Assembly (NCBI GenBank): GCA_963767005.1
Contig: CAVYCN010000004.1
Location: forward strand, 441,301-473,300
Length of the DNA stretch: 32,000 nucleotides
Direction: 5' to 3'
Source: an uncultured Actinomycetes bacterium
GTDB lineage: Bacteria > Actinomycetota > Thermoleophilia > UBA2241
Part shown: positions 3,729 to 15,545 of the stretch, in pieces
Position numbering within the stretch: the stretch's first letter is position 1
Layout: each line of letters begins with the position of its first letter
Translations under genes and position numbers: made by a program
The notes under the pieces: model-generated
What the model was told of the DNA's origin: nothing
Database searches by the model: none
Seen by the model: the letters and a program-made list of their open reading frames with translations, nothing else

Positions 3729-5111
3729 TCAGGCGTGAGCGTAGGCGCTGCCGCCGGTCGGCCTGACCGCCTTGGCCCGCTCGCGGTCGAGCGACAGGAA
3801 CGCCTCGACGCAGTGAGCGTCGAACTGCGTCCCGGCGCCGTTCGCAAGCTCGGCGATGGCGACCTCGTGCGAGAGCGCCGCGCGGTACGGACGGTCCGAC
3901 GTCATGGCGTCGTAGACGTCGGCCACCGCGATGATGCGGGAACCGAGTGGGATGTCCTCACCCGAGAGCCCCTCGGGATAGCCGGTGCCGTCCCAGCGCT
4001 CGTGGTGGTGCATGATGATGTCGGCGCCGGCGCCGAACAGGTTGAACTGCCCGGCCAAGGCCGCACCGGCCGCCGGGTGCTTGTTGATCTGGCGCCGCTC
4101 CTCCTCGGTCAGCTTGCCTTCCTTGAAGAGGATGCGGTTGTCGATCGAGATCTTGCCGAGGTCGTGGATATGCGCCGCTGAGACGACCAACTCGACCATG
4201 TTGCTCGGCAGACCGAGCGCAACCGCAATGCGCTCTGCGTGGTCGGCGACTCGCTTGGAGTGCTCGTAGGTGTACCGGTCGCGCTTGTCGAGGGTGTCGG
4301 CGAGCAGGACAAGGGCCTTCTCGGTGTCCGTCTTCAAGTGTGCGTAGAGCACGAAGCCCTTATACAGGACCCATATCAGCAGCGGGAAGTACAAGAGCGT
4401 CCACGGACTCTGTGCGTATGCGTTCGCGACGACGGCGCCGAGTGGGGCCATCGCCAGATAGAAGACTCCGCCCTCTCGCATCGACAGCAGCCAGCAGCGC
4501 CAGAAGGGCCGTCCGTGCAGGGCGAATACTCCACTCACCAGCATCCCGTTGACTGAGATGAAGACAAGTGCCGCGACGGCGTAGGCTGCGGCGTTCGACG
4601 TTAGACTCACGCTCGGGACAGCTCGCAAGGCTAGGAAGCTCAACCCGGCAAGTCCGCCGATTAGCGTCGACTGGCCACATTCGAAGGCCACCTTCAGCGC
4701 GCCTTTGCGGCGGAGAACTCCCTCCCCGACGAGCGCCCCGATGCACGCCGCCAAGGCACCAAAGGCCGGGCCGAAGAGCACGGCAGCCGCAAACGTGGGC
4801 GTGAAACACAGGGAGATCGCACCGTGATCGGACATGTGGACCGTCCACGAATCGCTCAACGCGATGACTCCCGCGAACAAGGCGAGCGCCGCCCATTGGT
4901 GCTTCGGAAGTGTCGAGAGTGTCGCGAGGACCAGCGTCAGTGCAGCTACGTCGACCGCCGCGACGTAGGCGGGTATCCGGCGTGCTCGTCGACCTATGGT
5001 AGGGAAGTTAGGACGCCGCTCAGCGCCTTCGCTGCGAGCATCTATCGCGGCTGACCGCGTCCTTGGCGACCAGAGCGTCATCATTGGTGCAGTGTCTCCT
5101 GTGCCCGACAC
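3729..5111 (-). CDS. Membrane-bound HD-GYP domain protein (putative c-di-GMP phosphodiesterase)
   Basis: About 7 predicted TM helices in the N-terminal half. The C-terminal half has 'HSKRVADHA', 'AAHIHDLGKI' and 'HHHERWDGTGYPEGL' (HD and HHExxDGxGYP motifs). The exact start is uncertain. Confidence 0.9.
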   Translation of the reverse strand: MSGTGDTAPMMTLWSPRTRSAAIDARSEGAERRPNFPTIGRRARRIPAYVAAVDVAALTLVLATLSTLPKHQWAALALFAGVIALSDSWTVHMSDHGAISLCFTPTFAAAVLFGPAFGALAACIGALVGEGVLRRKGALKVAFECGQSTLIGGLAGLSFLALRAVPSVSLTSNAAAYAVAALVFISVNGMLVSGVFALHGRPFWRCWLLSMREGGVFYLAMAPLGAVVANAYAQSPWTLLYFPLLIWVLYKGFVLYAHLKTDTEKALVLLADTLDKRDRYTYEHSKRVADHAERIAVALGLPSNMVELVVSAAHIHDLGKISIDNRILFKEGKLTEEERRQINKHPAAGAALAGQFNLFGAGADIIMHHHERWDGTGYPEGLSGEDIPLGSRIIAVADVYDAMTSDRPYRAALSHEVAIAELANGAGTQFDAHCVEAFLSLDRERAKAVRPTGGSAYAHA

Positions 5112-5220
5112 CGGCCGCGAACGGCCCGACTCATGGGTGCACGGTGCACGCCCGCCGGTACTTCATTCTCGGTCAGACGTGCGGTTCCCTTGAGTTGACC
5201 ACGGCAGATTGTGCCGCCCC

Positions 5221-5247
5221 GGTCCCGCGGGGACCTTCCCCTATAAT
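5221..5247 (+). promoter_or_regulatory. Candidate -10 (TATAAT 5242-5247) preceded by palindrome ggtccc-gcg-gggacc (5221-5235)
   Basis: Perfect TATAAT lies 27 nt upstream of the GTG start at 5274. The 6-nt-arm palindrome occupies the -35 position. There is no good -35 hexamer at 17 nt spacing, so support is weak. Confidence 0.3.
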
Positions 5248-5273
5248 GCGGCGAAGCGACTCGAGGGGGCCAG

Positions 5274-6863
5274 GTGAGCGAAGAATCCGCGGACAGGGTT
5301 GAGTACCACAGCGTGAAGGCTTTCGCTCGCGAGGAGCCCCGAATTGAGCTCATCGAGACCATGCTCAGGTCGGTTCTCGCGGCGGTTGACCTTGAGTATC
5401 AGGGCAAGCCCGTGCGGATCGACGGCTTTCGACTCCGCGACGCCGAGGATTGGCGCACGGTGCGCGAGACGTCGCTCCAACAAAACCTCGGCTCGTTCTC
5501 CACGGCCTGCAATTGCCACTGCGAATTCTGCTATGAGGACGGGAACCCAGAAGGCCTGTTCGTCAGGGAGCCCCGCTTCGTGAGCCTTGCTGAGGCCAAG
5601 ACGCGGTCGCGGCACGTACACGACGGCCAAGGGATGATGCGCGAGACAAAGTGCTTCTTCGAGCCCTTGGCCAATCCGCAGTTCCTCTCCCTGCTCGAGG
5701 TCGTTCGTGAGCGCCATCCCGACCAGGTGATTGACGTCACGACGAACGGGAGTCTGCTCACGAGCGACGTTGTCGCTCGCCTTGCGGACCTCAAGCCCGT
5801 CTACGTGAACCTTTCGCTGATTTCCGCGAACGGACCGGTTCGTCGGCGCATCATGCGGGACCGCAGGGCACAAACTGCCATCGACGCAATTCGGCACCTT
5901 CGAGCCCGCGAGGTCCCCTTCATGGGGACGCTCGTGCCTCTGCCCGATCAGGGGCTCCAGGATGTCACCGAAACGCTGGAGTACCTCGACGCATACGACG
6001 CCCGACTGGTGCGCGTGGCTCCCCCCGGGCTGAGCCGCTACCATCCAAGCTACAGGCCCGGGATCTTCGAGACGTGGGTGCCCGACCTCGTTGAGCATCT
6101 CTTAGCTGAGCGCCAGCGTCTCGCGACCCCTGTGATCGTCAGCCCCTTCGGCTTCGCCTCGGTGTCGATCGAGCCCATAGTCGAGGGGGTTATTCGCAGC
6201 TCCCCTGCGGCGAGCGCAGGAGTGCGCCTAGGGGACAAGGTGACTGTCGTCGACGGCACCAAGGTCGTGTCGCGCTCGCACGCTGCCAGCCTGCTGCGGC
6301 GGGCAATGAGAGTAGGAGTCGTCGACGTCGAGATCGCGCGCGGCTCGAAAACCAGACGTTTGCACCTGCAAGAGCCCGCCTTCGACGCTGACGCATACCC
6401 GCACAAGCCACGCGGCTACAAGCCGCTCGATTTTGCCGGCATGAGCTTCGGGTTGGTCCTGCCCGGTTCGTTCAAACTGCAATACGTCAAGCAGATACAC
6501 AGCAAGATTCAGGAGCGCAGCGCGAGGCACACGTTGATCGTGGCCTCGTCGTTCTATCGAGAGCTCGTTGAGAACCTGGTTCGCGACTTGCCGCTGCCCG
6601 ACGGTTCCTCGCTTGCCTTGGTCGTGCCGACCAACGGCTATTTCGGCGGGACCGTAAATGTCGGCGACCTGTGGGTGCTCGACGACATCGGTGACGCCGT
6701 CCGGGCCTACGTGCGCTCCCATGGCAAGCCCGACCTGCTGCTAATCCCAAGCTCGTGCCTCTCGCGGTGGGGACGAGACTTGCGTGGCGTGGCATACACG
6801 GAGCTCGAGGCGAGCCTCGGCATCGACATCGCGCTCATCCATTGCGAGCGCATCATTCTGTGA
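5274..6863 (+). CDS. Radical SAM enzyme with internal PDZ domain and DUF512-like C-terminal domain
   Basis: GTG start 4 nt after GAGGGGG. CX3CX2C in 'ACNCHCEFC' (C79/C83/C86), 'DVTTNGSLL' and 'VNLSLISANGPVRRRIM' are radical-SAM core strands. PDZ-like aa ~297-365: 'IVEGVIRSSPAASAGVRLGDKVTVVDGTKV'. DUF512-like tail: 'YFGGTVNVGDLWVLDDIGDAV...LLLIPSSCL'. There is no SPASM/twitch Cys cluster; the only other Cys are C81, C127, C495 and C524. Confidence 0.85.
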   Translation: MSEESADRVEYHSVKAFAREEPRIELIETMLRSVLAAVDLEYQGKPVRIDGFRLRDAEDWRTVRETSLQQNLGSFSTACNCHCEFCYEDGNPEGLFVREPRFVSLAEAKTRSRHVHDGQGMMRETKCFFEPLANPQFLSLLEVVRERHPDQVIDVTTNGSLLTSDVVARLADLKPVYVNLSLISANGPVRRRIMRDRRAQTAIDAIRHLRAREVPFMGTLVPLPDQGLQDVTETLEYLDAYDARLVRVAPPGLSRYHPSYRPGIFETWVPDLVEHLLAERQRLATPVIVSPFGFASVSIEPIVEGVIRSSPAASAGVRLGDKVTVVDGTKVVSRSHAASLLRRAMRVGVVDVEIARGSKTRRLHLQEPAFDADAYPHKPRGYKPLDFAGMSFGLVLPGSFKLQYVKQIHSKIQERSARHTLIVASSFYRELVENLVRDLPLPDGSSLALVVPTNGYFGGTVNVGDLWVLDDIGDAVRAYVRSHGKPDLLLIPSSCLSRWGRDLRGVAYTELEASLGIDIALIHCERIIL

Positions 6864-6870
6864 GGTCATC

Positions 6871-7122
6871 ATGAACGAGATTGCCGGTGAAGCCGAGTAT
6901 GTCTGGCACTTCAAGCTGTCTGCAGACACGGGCGGGATCGGAGCCGGGGACGGCCTGACCGGGATGGTGAGAGAACAGCTCCAGGCGCTCCTGCGTTGCG
7001 TCATCCTCACCGATCACGGCGCGAACCTGAAGGTGACCGGCTTTCGCTTCCTCGACGAACCGGGCGTAGTGCACAGCCTCCACGCGAATTCCCAAGAGGC
7101 TCCCTCACACGAGGGCCATTGA
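6871..7122 (+). CDS. Hypothetical 83-aa protein tightly coupled to the radical SAM gene
   Basis: ATG 6871 lies 5 nt after GAGG (6862-6865), which overlaps the upstream stop codon. Sequence: 'MNEIAGEAEYVWHFKLSADTGGIGAGDGLTGMVREQLQALLRCVILTDHGANLKVTGFRFLDEPGVVHSLHANSQEAPSHEGH'. I recognise no family. The track ORF 6784..7122 extends upstream into the rSAM gene. Confidence 0.55.
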   Translation: MNEIAGEAEYVWHFKLSADTGGIGAGDGLTGMVREQLQALLRCVILTDHGANLKVTGFRFLDEPGVVHSLHANSQEAPSHEGH

Positions 7123-7147
7123 CAGCTCGGGCAGGGAGTCTTAGGGT
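7119..7147 (+). promoter_or_regulatory. Sigma70-type promoter TTGACA-17 nt-TAGGGT upstream of the 37-codon ORF
   Basis: TTGACA at 7119-7124 overlaps the stop of the 83-aa ORF. An exact 17-nt spacer follows, then TAGGGT at 7142-7147 (TAnnnT class). The ATG lies about 47 nt downstream. Confidence 0.45.
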
Positions 7148-7194
7148 CCGACCGGGGTCAATCCGGCCAGTGGGAGCGTGAGATCGGAGGTCAC

Positions 7195-7308
7195 ATGAAC
7201 CAGGCGTTGGATGTCCTTGCGTTGGCCGACGTGGAAGAGGCCGACGAGATCGTCGACACGGTGATCGCCGATCCGCTGCAATTCAAATGGGACTCGCCAC
7301 TCGCCTAG
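7195..7308 (+). CDS. Small acidic peptide (37 aa), candidate precursor/substrate peptide; absent from the ORF track (below size cutoff)
   Basis: ATG 7195 lies 4 nt after GGAGG (7186-7190). It translates to 'MNQALDVLALADVEEADEIVDTVIADPLQFKWDSPLA', stop TAG 7306-7308. GC3 is 30/37 by hand count, against 42/60 for the overlapping minus-strand ORF 7141..7323. It sits between its own promoter and a strong terminator. Confidence 0.5.
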   Translation: MNQALDVLALADVEEADEIVDTVIADPLQFKWDSPLA

Positions 7309-7335
7309 CGAGCTAGCAGCCAAAACGCAAGCCTG

Positions 7336-7379
7336 AGGCGGCGGGCGGGAGGCGCAAAAGCGCCTCCCGCCCGCCGCCT
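7336..7379. terminator. Perfect 20-bp-stem hairpin, likely bidirectional terminator
   Basis: aggcggcgggcgggaggcgc (7336-7355), loop aaaa, gcgcctcccgcccgccgcct (7360-7379). On the + strand it is followed by tttctcc. It lies between the small ORF (+) and the stop of the convergent sensor gene (7391, -). Confidence 0.75.
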
Positions 7380-7390
7380 TTCTCCATCCC

Positions 7391-10372
7391 TCACCCGCTC
7401 ACGCGCACGGCGAGGATCTGCACGTCGTCGCGCAGCCCGTCGGCGTAGCGCTCCACCGCTGCGCCGACGCCCTGCGCCACGGCCTGCACATCGCCGTCGC
7501 GCAGCTCGTCCATGACGTCGAGCAGACGCCGTTCGCCGAACATCTCGCGGCGGCGGCGCGCCTCGGTCACGCCGTCGGTGTACAGCAGCAGGGTGTCGCC
7601 GGCGAGCAATGGGAGCTGGCGCACCGAGAAGCTCGCCGGAAAGGCGCCGAGCGGCGGGTGGAACGGCAGCTCGAGCAGCTCGGCGCGCGCCCCCCTGCGG
7701 ACGAGGACCGGTGGCGGATGGCCGGCGCTTGCCAGCACGGCCTGTCCGCGTGCGACGTCGACCGCGAGGAGCAAGGCGGTCACGAGCTGGCCGTGGCCCG
7801 GCTCGTGCAGCAGCAGGTCGTTGACGTGTCGAAGCACGTACTCGGGCGACGGGGTGATGAGCGTCAGCACACGCATGGCGCTGCGCACCGTCTCGGTCAT
7901 GCCGGCGGCGCCGATGCCCTTGCCTGTGACGTCGCCGATCAGCAGGGCCACAAGGCCTTTCCGGGCGACAAGCACGTCGTGAAAGTCGCCGCCCACGAGG
8001 TCGGGACGGTTGGCGGGGCGCGAGACAGCGGCCAGCTCGAGCCCCTCCACCCGGGGCATGGGGTGGATGAGGTGCGCCTGCAGCACGGTCGCGATATCGC
8101 GTTGGGTCTCGAAGAGACGGGCGTTCTCGAGGCCGGTCGTGGCCGCGGCCGCGATCGCTTCGAGCAGAGTGAGCTCGTCGGGCGCCACGTCGTGGACCCG
8201 CTTCCAGGCGGCGAACAGCGTGCCGATCGCGTTGCCGCCGGCCCGGAGCGGCAGGATGGCGAAGGCGCGCACGCCGGTCGCCTGCGCAGCGCGCCGCGAG
8301 GTCCTGGTCACCTCTTGGACCTGCGCGTCGGCGCCGACGCGCGGCTGGCCTGTCCTGAAGCAGATCGCCGTCTCGCGGTCGGCGCCGACCGGCATCGACC
8401 CCTCGACCTGGAGTCGACCGGAAGGGTCGAACGTGGCGACAGGCTCGAGCGACCTGCCGTTCGCGTCGGCCAGGCGGATCTGCACCTGATCGGCGTCGAG
8501 CAGGCGGCGGACCTCGTCGACCACCGCGCCGGCGGCTGTGGCGACGTCGAGCGACGCCGACGCCGACTCGGCCACCCTGCGCAGCACCTGGAGTTGCCTG
8601 CTGCGCCGTTCCTCGGCCTCGCGTGACGCGACCTCCGCCTCGAGCAGGCGGGCGTTGTCGAGGGCGAGCGAGACGGTGGCGCCGAGCTTGCGCCCGAAGT
8701 CCGTCTCGGCGGGGCTGAACGCACGCGGGGTCTTGCCGTAGGCGAGCAGGCAGCCGGTCACCTGTTCGCGGACCAGCAGCGGCACGCCGAGGACCGACCG
8801 CAGTCGGTGTTCGCGGACGAAGCCAACGTCGAAGGCGGAATCGTGCATGTCGGCGATCGCGAGGAGGCTCCTGGTCTCCTCGGCGCGCACGGCGATGGGT
8901 GCCACCTCGTCGGGCAGGAGCGCGCCGGTGGCCGACGGATCGAGGCCATACTGGTAACGGACCAGCCAGCCGCCGGCGGCGCGGATCTCGATGGCGCCGG
9001 CGTCGAGGCGCAGCGCACGCACGCCGGCGTCGAGGGCGCGCTGCATGATCTCGTCGGCGGTGAACGTGGCATGGACGAGCCGGTTGATCCCGTTGAGCGC
9101 CTCGCTCAGCCGCACCCGCTCGGCGAGCTCCGGGGTCTGCGAGCGCAGCTCATCGGCCTGGAGTCGCAGCTCCTCGCCCTGCGCCCGCTCGGCCGTGACG
9201 TCGGTGTGCAGCGCGAGGTTGGCGACGTGTGTGCCGGATTTGTCGTGCAGCGGGCTTGCGTTGAAGCGCGTCCAGAGAGTGCCGCCGTCGCTGCGGAGAA
9301 AGGCGAACTCGCCGGTCGCGATCTCGCCGCCGCCGAGCTTGTGGCGGAGCGCGTCGACGTCGCCGCGCCACTCCGGCGAGGCGAAGTCGGTGCTCGACTT
9401 GCCGAGGATCTCCTCGACGGGGTAGCCGAGCATCTCGGCCATGCGTGGATTGACGTAGGTGTACGCACCGTCGAGCCGGGCGATGGCGACGCCCTCGGCG
9501 GCCGTCTCGACGATCGTGCGGTATCGCTCCTCGCTATCCTGCAGGCGCCCGAGAAGCTCGTCGCGGTCGGCCTCACGCCGCTTGCGCGCACCGATCTCGA
9601 TGCTGAACTGGTTGATGCCGTGGACGGTCGGATAGAGGCGCTGCTCGAACCAGGTCTCGAGCGGCGGGAACCAGAACTCGTAGCGGCTCGCGATACCGAG
9701 GTGCATGGCGTCGAGCAGGCGCCGCTCGACGTCGGTCCCCACTATGTCGGGGAACAGGTCCCACAACGAGTGGCCCAGCAACTCGGCGGGCGTCAGGCCG
9801 GTCATCTCGCAGAAGCTGCGATTGACGTACAGGTGGTGGAACTCCCAATCGAGCGCCGCGAAGAGCTCGTCGATGTCCTCGAGGAACGTGGGTTGGCCCG
9901 ACGGGTCGAACGCGGGGATGGCGCTCGGCGCGGCGTCCGGCGCCGCGACCGCGTCGCGCTTGACCAGCCGCACCTGGAGGCCGCAGTCGCTGGACAGGGC
10001 GACCTCGTCGCAAAGCCGCGAGATCAGGAACAAGCCGCGGCCGTGGTCGAGGCTGGGGTCGGGCACTCGGTCGGGCGTGAAGGCAGCCACGTCGAAACCG
10101 TGGCCCGCATCCTTCACCGTGGCGATCACATGGCCGTCGTCGAAGCTCAGGGAGATCTCGATCTCGGCGCGAGAGCCGCTGTGGCGGATGGCGTTGGTGC
10201 AGGCTTCCTCGATGGCGAGCACGAGGTCGTGAACGGTGGCGGCCTCGGCGCAGTGCCCGCTCAGATACTCGCGCAGCCGTTCGCGGGCGCGCGCCAGATG
10301 GGCCGGGTCGGGAGCCAGGCGAAAGCGCAGCCGCGGCCCAACGTTCGTTCGTCTGGAGAAGCTGTCGGTCAC
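7391..10372 (-). CDS. Multidomain sensor: RsbW-like HATPase kinase module + 2 PAS + 2 GAF + PP2C/SpoIIE phosphatase
   Basis: GTG start. N-terminus has 'AIEEACTNAIRHSG', 'DAGHGF' and 'GRGLFLISRL' (anti-sigma-factor-type ATPase). PAS-like segment 'SEERYRTIVETAAEGVAIARLDG...'. Two GAF-like blocks. C-terminal 'GGDFHDV', 'IGDVTGKGIGAAGM' and 'LLLYTDGVTEARR' are PP2C/SpoIIE motifs. Confidence 0.9.
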   Translation of the reverse strand: MTDSFSRRTNVGPRLRFRLAPDPAHLARARERLREYLSGHCAEAATVHDLVLAIEEACTNAIRHSGSRAEIEISLSFDDGHVIATVKDAGHGFDVAAFTPDRVPDPSLDHGRGLFLISRLCDEVALSSDCGLQVRLVKRDAVAAPDAAPSAIPAFDPSGQPTFLEDIDELFAALDWEFHHLYVNRSFCEMTGLTPAELLGHSLWDLFPDIVGTDVERRLLDAMHLGIASRYEFWFPPLETWFEQRLYPTVHGINQFSIEIGARKRREADRDELLGRLQDSEERYRTIVETAAEGVAIARLDGAYTYVNPRMAEMLGYPVEEILGKSSTDFASPEWRGDVDALRHKLGGGEIATGEFAFLRSDGGTLWTRFNASPLHDKSGTHVANLALHTDVTAERAQGEELRLQADELRSQTPELAERVRLSEALNGINRLVHATFTADEIMQRALDAGVRALRLDAGAIEIRAAGGWLVRYQYGLDPSATGALLPDEVAPIAVRAEETRSLLAIADMHDSAFDVGFVREHRLRSVLGVPLLVREQVTGCLLAYGKTPRAFSPAETDFGRKLGATVSLALDNARLLEAEVASREAEERRSRQLQVLRRVAESASASLDVATAAGAVVDEVRRLLDADQVQIRLADANGRSLEPVATFDPSGRLQVEGSMPVGADRETAICFRTGQPRVGADAQVQEVTRTSRRAAQATGVRAFAILPLRAGGNAIGTLFAAWKRVHDVAPDELTLLEAIAAAATTGLENARLFETQRDIATVLQAHLIHPMPRVEGLELAAVSRPANRPDLVGGDFHDVLVARKGLVALLIGDVTGKGIGAAGMTETVRSAMRVLTLITPSPEYVLRHVNDLLLHEPGHGQLVTALLLAVDVARGQAVLASAGHPPPVLVRRGARAELLELPFHPPLGAFPASFSVRQLPLLAGDTLLLYTDGVTEARRRREMFGERRLLDVMDELRDGDVQAVAQGVGAAVERYADGLRDDVQILAVRVSG

Positions 10373-13930: not shown

Positions 13931-13971
13931 CGGGGAGGTCAAACCGCTTGGATCTCAGGAGAAGACACCGC

Positions 13972-15162
13972 ATGGCGACCATGCCTAGGAAGCGCCTCTC
14001 GTTCCTCGATCGCTATCTCACCGCCTGGATCTTCCTGGCGATGGCGCTCGGCGTGTTTTTGGGCTGGACCTTTGCCGGCGTGCCCGCCTTCATCGATCGC
14101 TTCAAAGCGGGCACGACCAACATCCCCATCGCCTTCGGCCTGATCGTGATGATGTATCCGCCGCTTGCCAGGGTGCGCTACGAGGAGCTCGGCGACGTCT
14201 TTCGCGATTACAAGGTCCTCGGTCTCTCGCTCGTGCAGAACTGGGTGATTGGCCCGTTCCTCATGTTCTTCCTGGCGATCATCTTCCTGCACAACTACCC
14301 GCAGTTCATGGTGGGCCTCATCATGATCGGCCTGGCGCGCTGCATCGCCATGGTGATCGTCTGGAACCAGCTCGCCGACGGTGACACCGAGTACGCAGCC
14401 GGGCTGGTGGCTTTCAACGCGGTCTTCCAGGTGCTCTTCTACAGCCTCTTCGCCTGGGTCTTCGTGACCAGGCTGCCGCCGCTGTTCGGCCTGCACGGAG
14501 CCGCAGTCAACGTCTCGATCGGTCAGATCGCGAAGAGCGTCTTCATCTACCTCGGCATCCCGTTCCTGGCCGGCATGCTCACCCGCTACCTCGGGCTCAA
14601 GTACAAGGGCCGCCGCTGGTACGAGGAGACGTTCATACCGCGCATCAGCCCGCTGACACTGATCGCTCTGCTGTTCACGATCGTCGTCATGTTCAGCCTC
14701 AAGGGCCATCTCATCGTCAAGCTGCCGCTCGACGTCGTGCGCATCGCCATCCCGCTGCTCATCTACTTCGTCGTCATGTTCTTCGTGAGCTTCTACCTGG
14801 GCCGCAAGATCGGCGCCGACTACTCGAAGACCGCGACCCTGTCGTTCACGGCGGCCAGCAACAACTTCGAGCTCGCCATCGCCGTGAGCATCGCCGTGTT
14901 CGGGATCGGTTCGGGGGTGGCGTTTGCCGCCGTGATCGGGCCGCTTGTCGAAGTGCCGGTCATGATCGGCCTGGTCAACGTCGCCCTCTGGATGGGGCGC
15001 CGCTACTGGGCCCTGAGCGACGAACCCGTGCCGGCTGCGGTGGTCGCCGGCGTCGAGGAGGTCGCCTGCGACCCACCGAAGGAGCATGATCGCCCTGCCG
15101 TTCAGGCGTCCACAGATCCGCCCGCACAGCCTCGGCCCACAGCCAACCCGGAGGCGAGATGA
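13972..15162 (+). CDS. acr3: ACR3-family arsenite efflux permease
   Basis: '[21 protein letters not shown]' is a typical ACR3 N-terminus, with about 10 TM helices including '[14 protein letters not shown]'. ATG 13972 follows AGGAGA; the track alternative is TTG 13948. The C-terminal ~45 aa are a Pro/Ala-rich tail. Confidence 0.9.
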
Positions 15163-15545
15163 AAGTCGTCAGAGAGCCCGTGGCGCCCGACAGCCTTGTC
15201 GATGTGGTGCCGTTCTTCAAAGTGTTCTGTAACTCGACCCGTGCCCAGATCATCGACTTTCTGCTGAGAGGCGAACGCTGTGTCTGCGAGATGACCGGGC
15301 CGCTCGACCAGAGTCAGCCCCTGGTCTCCCATCACCTCGCCCTGCTGCGTGACGCCGGCATTGTGCGCATGCGCAGCGAGGGTGCGCGCACCTACTACTC
15401 CATCGACTGGGAGCGGTTCGACGGCGAGCTCAAGGGCTTCCTCGATTACGTCGGTCAGCGGCGCAGCGCACCGCACGACGCCGACGCCACGCGCAGCGCC
15501 TGTGCGGTAGCCGCCAAGCCGGCGAAGAAGCGCAACGCCTCATGA
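15159..15545 (+). CDS. arsR: ArsR/SmtB-family As(III)-responsive repressor
   Basis: An ATGA overlap joins it to the acr3 stop. The winged-HTH '[45 protein letters not shown]' contains the CVC metalloid-binding motif at the same position as 'ELCVCDL' in R773 ArsR. Confidence 0.9.

Follow-up and report, generated by a model that had tools for sequence, protein, structure and literature searches.

In the biosynthesis of mycofactocin (MftA/MftB/MftC) and of pyrroloquinoline quinone (PQQ; PqqA/PqqD/PqqE), a peptide of ~30 residues is served by a chaperone of ~90 residues and a radical S-adenosylmethionine (SAM) enzyme. The chemistry takes place at or near the C-terminus of the peptide, the chaperone is free or fused to the N-terminus of the enzyme, and there is no dedicated exporter. 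More generally, a conserved leader followed by a variable core is the classical signature of the precursors of peptides that are ribosomally synthesized and modified after translation (RiPPs), and a leader protease and/or an exporter is common, but not obligatory, in RiPP clusters. DUF512, found in some radical SAM enzymes, was shown in 2024 to be a cobalamin-binding domain (PMC11659888). DUF512 proteins bind cobalamin and cleave SAM, and the related Mmp10 acts on a peptide segment (PMC11659888, PMC13331322). There are ~6000 DUF512-type cobalamin radical SAM enzymes. Which reactions they catalyze was still being asked in a review of December 2025 (PMC13331322), and both the reactions and the PDZ domain's role are still asked in late-2025/2026 reviews (PMC13331322, PMC11659888). 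Here we analyze a 32-kb stretch of DNA (32,000 nucleotides; hereafter the window) from an uncultured bacterium of the Thermoleophilia, contig CAVYCN010000004.1. It contains a gene for a radical SAM enzyme with an inserted PDZ domain, a gene for an 83-residue protein (p83) and, last, an open reading frame (ORF) of 37 codons (Table 1). Comparison with related loci indicates that the ORF is a real, conserved, protein-coding small gene. Its product is probably the precursor, or substrate peptide, of the radical SAM-PDZ enzyme encoded two genes upstream, in a RiPP-like system.

Homologs of the 37-residue product (MNQALDVLALADVEEADEIVDTVIADPLQFKWDSPLA) were sought by tblastn and by jackhmmer on six-frame translations of related loci. 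One is present in every related locus in which the radical SAM enzyme is at least 54% identical and enough downstream sequence is available (L005-L010, L023, L031-L036 and L083-L085), invariably downstream of the radical SAM and p83 genes and on the same strand. Across these loci, each conserved residue of the peptide is encoded by two to four synonymous codons: A13 by GCC, GCT, GCG and GCA, P29 by four codons and L30 by three. Pairwise pS is 0.63 and pN 0.31, and substitutions pile up at the third codon positions of the plus strand. The resulting pN/pS of 0.49 compares with 0.97 in the codon-aligned frame of an antisense ORF of 60 residues. This difference and the synonymous codon use argue for purifying selection on the ORF as a plus-strand protein. 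The start codon, the Shine-Dalgarno sequence and the stop codon keep their positions among the relatives. GC content by codon position, the measure by which the real genes of the window were told apart, is 0.68/0.29/0.82 for the ORF and resembles that of the adjacent genes.

These data bear on a reading in which the locus holds no plus-strand protein gene, so that the promoter drives a small RNA or the antisense ORF is the real one. Ten of 11 relatives have an open antisense frame, but this is expected at such a GC content, and the codon variation and the fixed start, Shine-Dalgarno and stop positions favor the plus strand. The transcript does end in a very stable hairpin, as a small RNA might. 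A search of Rfam, however, returned no family at threshold and no riboswitch or small RNA, the only matches being spurious, sub-threshold microRNA hairpins at the terminator. We consider this the least probable of all the readings discussed here.

An original prediction, made from the window alone, had already preferred the plus-strand ORF to the antisense one and had looked to tblastn among relatives for conservation with synonymous-site variation; both expectations are borne out. Its coordinates for the promoter, GGAGG, ATG, TAG and 20-bp stem are exact, both on reading the sequence and in a scripted check, and its counts of G or C at third codon positions (GC3; 30/37 for the peptide ORF, 42/60 for the antisense ORF) were reproduced. 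It was mistaken in holding the ORF to be untracked and liable to be missed by automated annotation. The product is already called on all four Logan contigs, it is present as a protein from NCBI, ENA and Logan sources, and its relatives are carried by JGI as 'hypothetical protein'.

The peptide belongs to a larger family. A profile search of 5.8 billion proteins, with an alignment of 11 peptide sequences as the query, yielded 56 cluster representatives of 29-67 residues, all unnamed and none with a Pfam domain. An exhaustive HMMER scan of 1.84 billion representatives gave 35 hits, ~30 of them small proteins of 37-99 residues, and added ~20 members to the 56, making about 75 relatives overall. 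Some large proteins also matched the profile. In one of them (P0173, 667 residues) the match is to repeated DGDPLTFRWAF strands of Ig/PKD-like repeats, which we judged to be a chance likeness to DADPLxF[K/R]W. Neither the peptide nor p83 is represented by a model of Pfam, NCBIfam, Rfam or PADLOC.

Two parts can be distinguished in the peptide. The leader-like part (MNQALDVLALADVEEADEIVDTVIA) carries the motif D[V/I/L]LALA[E/D]xEEAD[E/Q], and the core-like part (DPLQFKWDSPLA) the motif DPLxF[K/R]WxxP-hydrophobic-small. In the leader of 48 members, L10, A11 and E14 never vary, and L8, E15, A16 and D17 reach 90% conservation or more. The core was compared in 74 members. Arg or Lys follows the Phe in 62 of these and Trp stands at F+2 in 55; in 53 the distance from the motif to the C-terminus is 12-13 residues, and the last residue is Ser, Gly or Ala in 45. 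Distant members retain the leader and have the core swapped for Pro-rich sequences, for example DPLLFRTDPPLPLPPFPP and DPLLFRTDPPLPLPPFPPATAR. The family thus shows the leader/core organization of RiPP precursors, with a leader kept throughout and a core conserved in the main group.

Linkage to a gene for a modifying enzyme is equally consistent. The peptide and the radical SAM-PDZ enzyme co-occur strictly, in both directions. Wherever the sequence suffices, the module has the order of a divergent gene for an HD-GYP-like protein, the radical SAM-PDZ gene, p83 and, last, the peptide gene. This linkage holds in all loci of the close clade, and three peptides looked up independently were all found in the same four-gene arrangement.

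The enzyme matches Pfam Radical_SAM (1.2e-15) and PDZ_2 (3.8e-08). A helix-hairpin domain precedes the radical SAM core (residues ~18-56), and the PDZ domain (residues ~293-365) is inserted between the core and a C-terminal domain. In 79 enzyme homologs the cysteines of the CX3CX2C motif (C79/C83/C86) are the sole invariant ones, so that the enzyme has no SPASM domain or auxiliary cluster. In agreement, no SPASM/twitch domain was matched in Pfam, and the scores against the NCBIfam radical SAM-SPASM maturases are far under the cutoffs. An AlphaFold2 (AF2) model built from the 79-homolog alignment has a pLDDT of 92.8 and a pTM of 0.91. The best match of the model in the Protein Data Bank (PDB) by Foldseek is csDUF512 (9CG1, E = 1.6e-14), and pfDUF512 (9CG2, E = 9.9e-13, target TM 0.67) and Mmp10, a cobalamin-dependent arginine methyltransferase (7QBS and related entries, E ~1e-7), are also matched. 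All these alignments span ~480-500 columns. In the model, the C-terminal domain folds like the cobalamin-binding domain of DUF512 proteins and Mmp10, and cobalamin binding is predicted from this likeness. One related locus, L088, has CbiZ and CobD/CbiB genes (7488-8141 and 8991-9440) 2-4 kb downstream of its peptide gene, a neighborhood that fits a cobalamin-dependent enzyme.

Major differences from the described enzymes can be observed. csDUF512 and pfDUF512 rank first by structure and also, among the radical SAM entries of the PDB, by sequence (profile E = 5.5e-14 and 9.2e-10). csDUF512 likewise joins a PDZ domain, a radical SAM core and a cobalamin domain (PMC11659888). While the PDZ domain of csDUF512 is N-terminal and completes the barrel, that of the present enzyme follows the core, and its N-terminus holds an additional helix-hairpin domain. 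The cluster loop is not followed by a DDD motif; the sequence after C86 reads YEDGNPEGLF... Against TIGR03279, the model for csDUF512-type proteins, the enzyme scores 17 bits with a cutoff of 574.7 bits. By these sequence measures it is not a csDUF512-type protein.

Mmp10 (methanogenesis marker protein 10; PDB 7QBS and others), a class-2 cobalamin-dependent radical SAM enzyme, C-methylates arginine in methyl-coenzyme M reductase. As in the present enzyme, its C-terminal domain comes after a radical SAM core, and the predicted fold agrees with that of Mmp10 over nearly the whole chain (target TM 0.53-0.57). The CX3CX2C motif of class-2 cobalamin radical SAM enzymes is the one found invariant among the 79 homologs. 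Identity, however, is only 11-14%. Mmp10 lacks a PDZ domain and is accompanied neither by a p83-like protein nor by a small precursor gene of its own; it acts on a large enzyme subunit, and methyl transfer by the enzyme described here is a prediction.

The three-component make-up is that of the mycofactocin and PQQ systems, and the occurrence of p83 parallels the free and fused forms of PqqD-type domains. Unlike those systems, the enzyme has no SPASM domain, carrying a PDZ and a cobalamin-type domain instead; p83 does not match PF05402, and the peptide is unlike MftA and PqqA. A short precursor with a conserved aromatic or basic motif beside its maturase is also seen in the Trp-containing radical SAM RiPPs (streptide KxxxW/StrB-SuiB, WGK/WgkB, darobactin and the triceptides). 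All of their maturases are SPASM/twitch enzymes with PqqD-like recognition elements. SuiB and SkfB are among the weaker fold matches of the present enzyme, over the radical SAM core only, and its scores for WgkB and YhhB in NCBIfam are ~20 bits with cutoffs of 445-650. The Lys or Arg adjoins the Trp in the peptide and is not placed at the streptide spacing. PDZ domains of RseP, DegP, DegS and HtrA bind C-terminal or internal peptide strands by β-augmentation. The PDZ profile of the enzyme matches RseP/DegP-type PDZ domains down to E = 9e-18, with the difference that here the domain sits in a radical SAM enzyme and not in a protease. In the literature that could be searched, no paper joins a PDZ domain, a radical SAM enzyme and a precursor peptide. 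We class the locus as RiPP-like, a radical SAM system whose enzyme architecture and recognition partner are both without precedent.

The gene for that partner, p83, starts 8 nt past the enzyme stop codon, with GAGG 5 nt before its ATG, an arrangement that indicates translational coupling to the enzyme gene. Homologs of p83 occur next to the radical SAM gene, either upstream or downstream, in Caldisericum, Armatimonadota, Planctomycetota, Eremiobacterota, Anaerolineales and others. A hidden Markov model (HMM) of p83 alone matches residues ~11-50 of all 79 enzyme homologs (median 25.8 bits; maximum of the reversed control -1.7), and hhalign relates p83 to the enzyme N-terminus with a probability of 97.3% and E = 1.8e-11 (window positions 6871-7122 and 5274-5450). 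These matches identify p83 as a separately encoded paralog of the N-terminal domain of the enzyme. The kinship is visible at the profile level only, and pairwise BLAST between the two within the window finds nothing. p83 has no match in Pfam or NCBIfam even at E <= 1, PqqD (PF05402) included. Its AF2 model, built from 8 sequences, is poor (pLDDT 57). The p83 proteins of distant clades share a conserved tail motif, DPxxx[Y/H]x[I/V][F/Y]P. In the peptide-bearing clade this tail is degenerate and the aromatic residue is often lost.

The peptide gene has a predicted promoter of its own. The pattern TTGACN-17-TANNNT occurs once in the window, both strands counted, with 0.05 matches expected. TANNNT is the usual actinobacterial form of the -10 element. 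A generic sigma-70 scan of the window does not report this promoter, because it demands an E. coli-like -10 and TAGGGT shares three of its six bases with TATAAT. In the related loci, TTGAC[A/T/G]-17/18-TA[G/A]NNT is found in single copy 36-59 nt upstream of the peptide start in 12 of 12 cases. The 216 kb of 11 of these loci contain 13 matches to the pattern, 11 of which are peptide promoters. This phylogenetic footprint, kept in all twelve loci and nearly absent elsewhere in them, supports the predicted element as a promoter dedicated to the peptide gene, with transcription expected to start near 7154-7156. Its -35 hexamer overlaps the stop codon of p83 (TGA, 7120-7122), so that the peptide gene could be transcribed by read-through as well as from its own promoter. 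GGAG-like purine runs stand a few to ~10 nt before the start codon in nearly all relatives.

The hairpin downstream of the ORF folds at -60.6 kcal/mol (z = -6.3), and none of 200 shuffled sequences is as stable. Its arm sequence has no other copy in the window and is not a dispersed repeat. The T-tail that follows on the plus strand is weak (TTCTCC). Since the hairpin is sited between convergent genes, 11 nt from the stop codon (7391-7393) of a gene for a 993-residue protein, it could end both transcripts, and it is a probable terminator, perhaps in both directions. Strong hairpins are also present 3' of the peptide gene in L005 (20 bp followed by TTTTT), L006, L009 and L007. In the remaining loci they are weak or absent. 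The complete private expression unit of the original prediction therefore holds for the promoter, the Shine-Dalgarno sequence and the ORF, which are kept among relatives, and does not extend to the hairpin, clear in only about half of the loci.

The upstream operon shows promoter-like features as well. A perfect TATAAT (5242-5247) lies 26 nt before the GTG start of the enzyme gene (region 5196-5273), with a GC-rich palindrome, cccgcgggg, at the place of the -35 and TTGACC 40 nt further upstream. This promoter may be regulated.

A small, acidic product with a strong promoter of its own would also suit an antitoxin or the smaller member of a toxin-antitoxin or defense pair; this is the sole observation in its favor. 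No toxin-like gene adjoins the ORF, and all loci pair the peptide with the radical SAM enzyme and p83. PADLOC reports only a generic HD domain (Cas3-HD-like) and a radical SAM core (viperin-like) for the neighbors and nothing for p83 or the peptide, and no antitoxin family of Pfam or NCBIfam is matched. This reading is very improbable, and we regard both it and the non-coding or antisense reading as essentially excluded. Among the three functions that had been offered for the ORF (precursor peptide, small regulatory protein, antitoxin), the precursor of the upstream enzyme fits best, given the strict co-occurrence, the conserved leader and the core that varies in distant members; the antitoxin idea finds no toxin partner and no defense or toxin-antitoxin family match.

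The fourth gene of the module encodes the HD-GYP-like protein, which matches Pfam HD_5 with E = 4.5e-40. By tblastn, its gene immediately precedes the radical SAM gene, in divergent orientation, in L005, L007-L010, L023, L031-L033, L036, L069, L083 and L084, and gene calls place it in L086-L088 as well. It was not found in the loci of distant phyla and is conserved only in the peptide-bearing, Thermoleophilia-like clade. A fifth module gene was considered and rejected, the candidate being a convergent 77-residue gene downstream that is common to three very close loci only.

A different account of the same module has to be weighed here. The 37-residue product could be an unmodified adaptor or regulator that occupies the PDZ domain, binds p83 or modulates the HD-GYP-type protein, the true substrate being the tail of p83 or an unlinked protein. 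It is p83, and not the peptide, that is conserved across phyla, with its own C-terminal motif in distant clades, and from this distribution the ancestral substrate could be p83. Only in the Thermoleophilia-like clade, in turn, do the peptide and the HD-GYP-like gene occur together. In the peptide-bearing clade, however, the p83 tail is the poorly conserved one and the C-terminal motif of the peptide is highly conserved. Retention of the leader while the core changes in distant members marks a precursor and not an adaptor, and a strong private promoter on the last and smallest gene suits a substrate needed in stoichiometric amounts. We consider the adaptor account, although it is the main rival of the precursor reading, unlikely.

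Further points weigh against a modified precursor. Neither the flanks of L083-L088 nor the window contain a conserved protease or transporter, which also speaks for the adaptor account, and the window contains no cobalamin genes. The DUF512 model of Pfam gives the enzyme 23.9 bits, under its 25-bit cutoff. At its very C-terminus the peptide is only loosely conserved, and long Pro-rich tails occur in some members, which makes a fixed register of PDZ docking uncertain. Homology of the C-terminal half of the peptide to the tail of p83, or to the ORFs that distant phyla carry at this place (see below), was tried with hhalign and rejected, at a probability below 1%. All functional claims on the peptide are drawn from sequence, and its modification is a prediction. 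With these points included, we still favor the precursor reading as the probable one.

A possible mechanism for the modification of the precursor can be outlined. The enzyme and p83 would be made from the operon promoter and the peptide also from its private one, giving an excess of peptide. The acidic, probably helical leader (DVLALAD-EEADE) would be bound by p83 and/or the homologous N-terminal domain of the enzyme, in parallel to the free and fused chaperones of the PqqD/MftB type. The PDZ domain would dock the P-hydrophobic-small-COOH tail by β-strand addition, so that the active site would receive the DPLxF[K/R]W segment, which lies 6-9 residues from the C-terminus. There, a 5'-deoxyadenosyl radical would take a hydrogen from one of the residues of this segment. 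By analogy with Mmp10, we guess that the reaction is most likely a cobalamin-mediated C-methylation, with a cross-link or some other radical product as an alternative outcome. With no linked protease or exporter, the product may remain intracellular or depend on machinery encoded elsewhere. The membrane-associated HD-GYP-type neighbor, which is specific to the clade, hints at a role in signaling, perhaps of the cyclic-di-GMP type, which is speculative.

A bolder proposal goes beyond the precursor assignment, and we advance it tentatively, as a possibility with more doubt than confidence attached. For PDZ-containing, DUF512/Mmp10-like cobalamin radical SAM enzymes, the peptide would be the first substrate to be identified genetically, and it would found a new RiPP class. 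In this class, p83, an element unrelated to PqqD, would read the leader, the PDZ domain would position the tail, and the product would feed membrane HD-GYP-type signaling. The enzyme-p83 pair of other phyla would act on unrelated twin-arginine-signal proteins ending in ...LKLEWS, as a general system for the modification of C-terminal tails. If true, this would extend the RiPPs by a new class from little-studied Thermoleophilia-like Actinomycetota and would add a new kind of leader-recognition protein and the first role of a PDZ domain in substrate selection by a radical SAM enzyme. Since the locus supplies the enzyme, the partner and a 37-residue candidate substrate, it makes the question of what DUF512-type enzymes do testable for one branch of them.

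The enzyme and p83 genes of distant phyla are separated by a different ORF. It is of two types, neither matching a curated family. The first type has ~119 residues and a twin-arginine-like signal, ends in ...VMTLKLEWS, ...LSLTWA, ...LGLTWD or ...LALLYSP, and is sometimes present as a tandem pair. The second has 64-86 residues and ends in ...LHLSISWG or ...FYLAFAWG. The two types align with each other. With hhalign giving no support for homology to the peptide, the hydrophobic-x-hydrophobic-x-Trp pattern is a resemblance only. These ORFs may be the substrates in the distant lineages, and the shared hydrophobic-x-hydrophobic-x-Trp-small ending near the C-terminus tentatively suggests a common mode of PDZ-guided recognition. 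Some distant loci contain two tandem PDZ radical SAM paralogs, and L040 and L050 encode an additional radical SAM protein of 374 residues (L040/L050, 1379-2965, 2875-4572 and 4539-5678; L077, 2959-4626 and 6659-7624). This make-up suggests cassettes for multi-step modification.

Table 1 Features of the peptide locus (window coordinates) and intervening ORFs of related loci (coordinates of each locus)
Feature	Position	Strand	Description
HD-GYP-like gene	3729-5111	-	460 aa; membrane-associated N-terminal region; HD_5 at residues 270-433
Radical SAM enzyme	5274-6863	+	529 aa; Pfam Radical_SAM and PDZ_2
p83	6871-7122	+	83 aa; no known family
Predicted peptide-gene promoter	7119-7147	+	-35 TTGACA 7119-7124; 17-nt spacer; -10 TAGGGT 7142-7147
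Antisense ORF	7141-7323	-	60 aa; overlaps peptide ORF
Shine-Dalgarno sequence	7186-7190	+	GGAGG, 4 nt before ATG 7195
Peptide ORF	7195-7308	+	37 codons; ATG 7195; TAG 7306-7308
Leader-like part	7195-7269	+	Residues 1-25
Core-like part	7270-7308	+	Residues 26-37 plus TAG
Hairpin (probable terminator)	7336-7379	no strand	Perfect 20-bp GC-rich stem, 7336-7355/7360-7379; AAAA loop
Convergent gene	7391-10372	-	993 aa; RsbW-like/PAS/GAF/PP2C
Intervening ORFs	L015 5699-6061; L055 4853-5212; L052 4446-4802, 4912-5259; L050 5685-5945; L017 5667-5861		Between enzyme and p83 genes; also in similar loci

The module differs from its surroundings in composition. GC content is ~64% at ~4000-7000 and ~72% in the flanks, and GC3 is ~0.8 in the module and 0.9-0.96 in the flanks. 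The lower GC content is compatible with horizontal acquisition; yet L005 shares the downstream 993-residue gene, at 79% identity. The rest of the window consists of ordinary genes. Among them is an arsenic-type cluster (13948-17922) with an ACR3/SBF-family transporter, ArsR, a partial match to CdhD (a corrinoid Fe-S protein subunit) and a DUF364/DUF4213 'heavy-metal chelation' protein. Positions 18185-18257 encode a tRNA on the minus strand.

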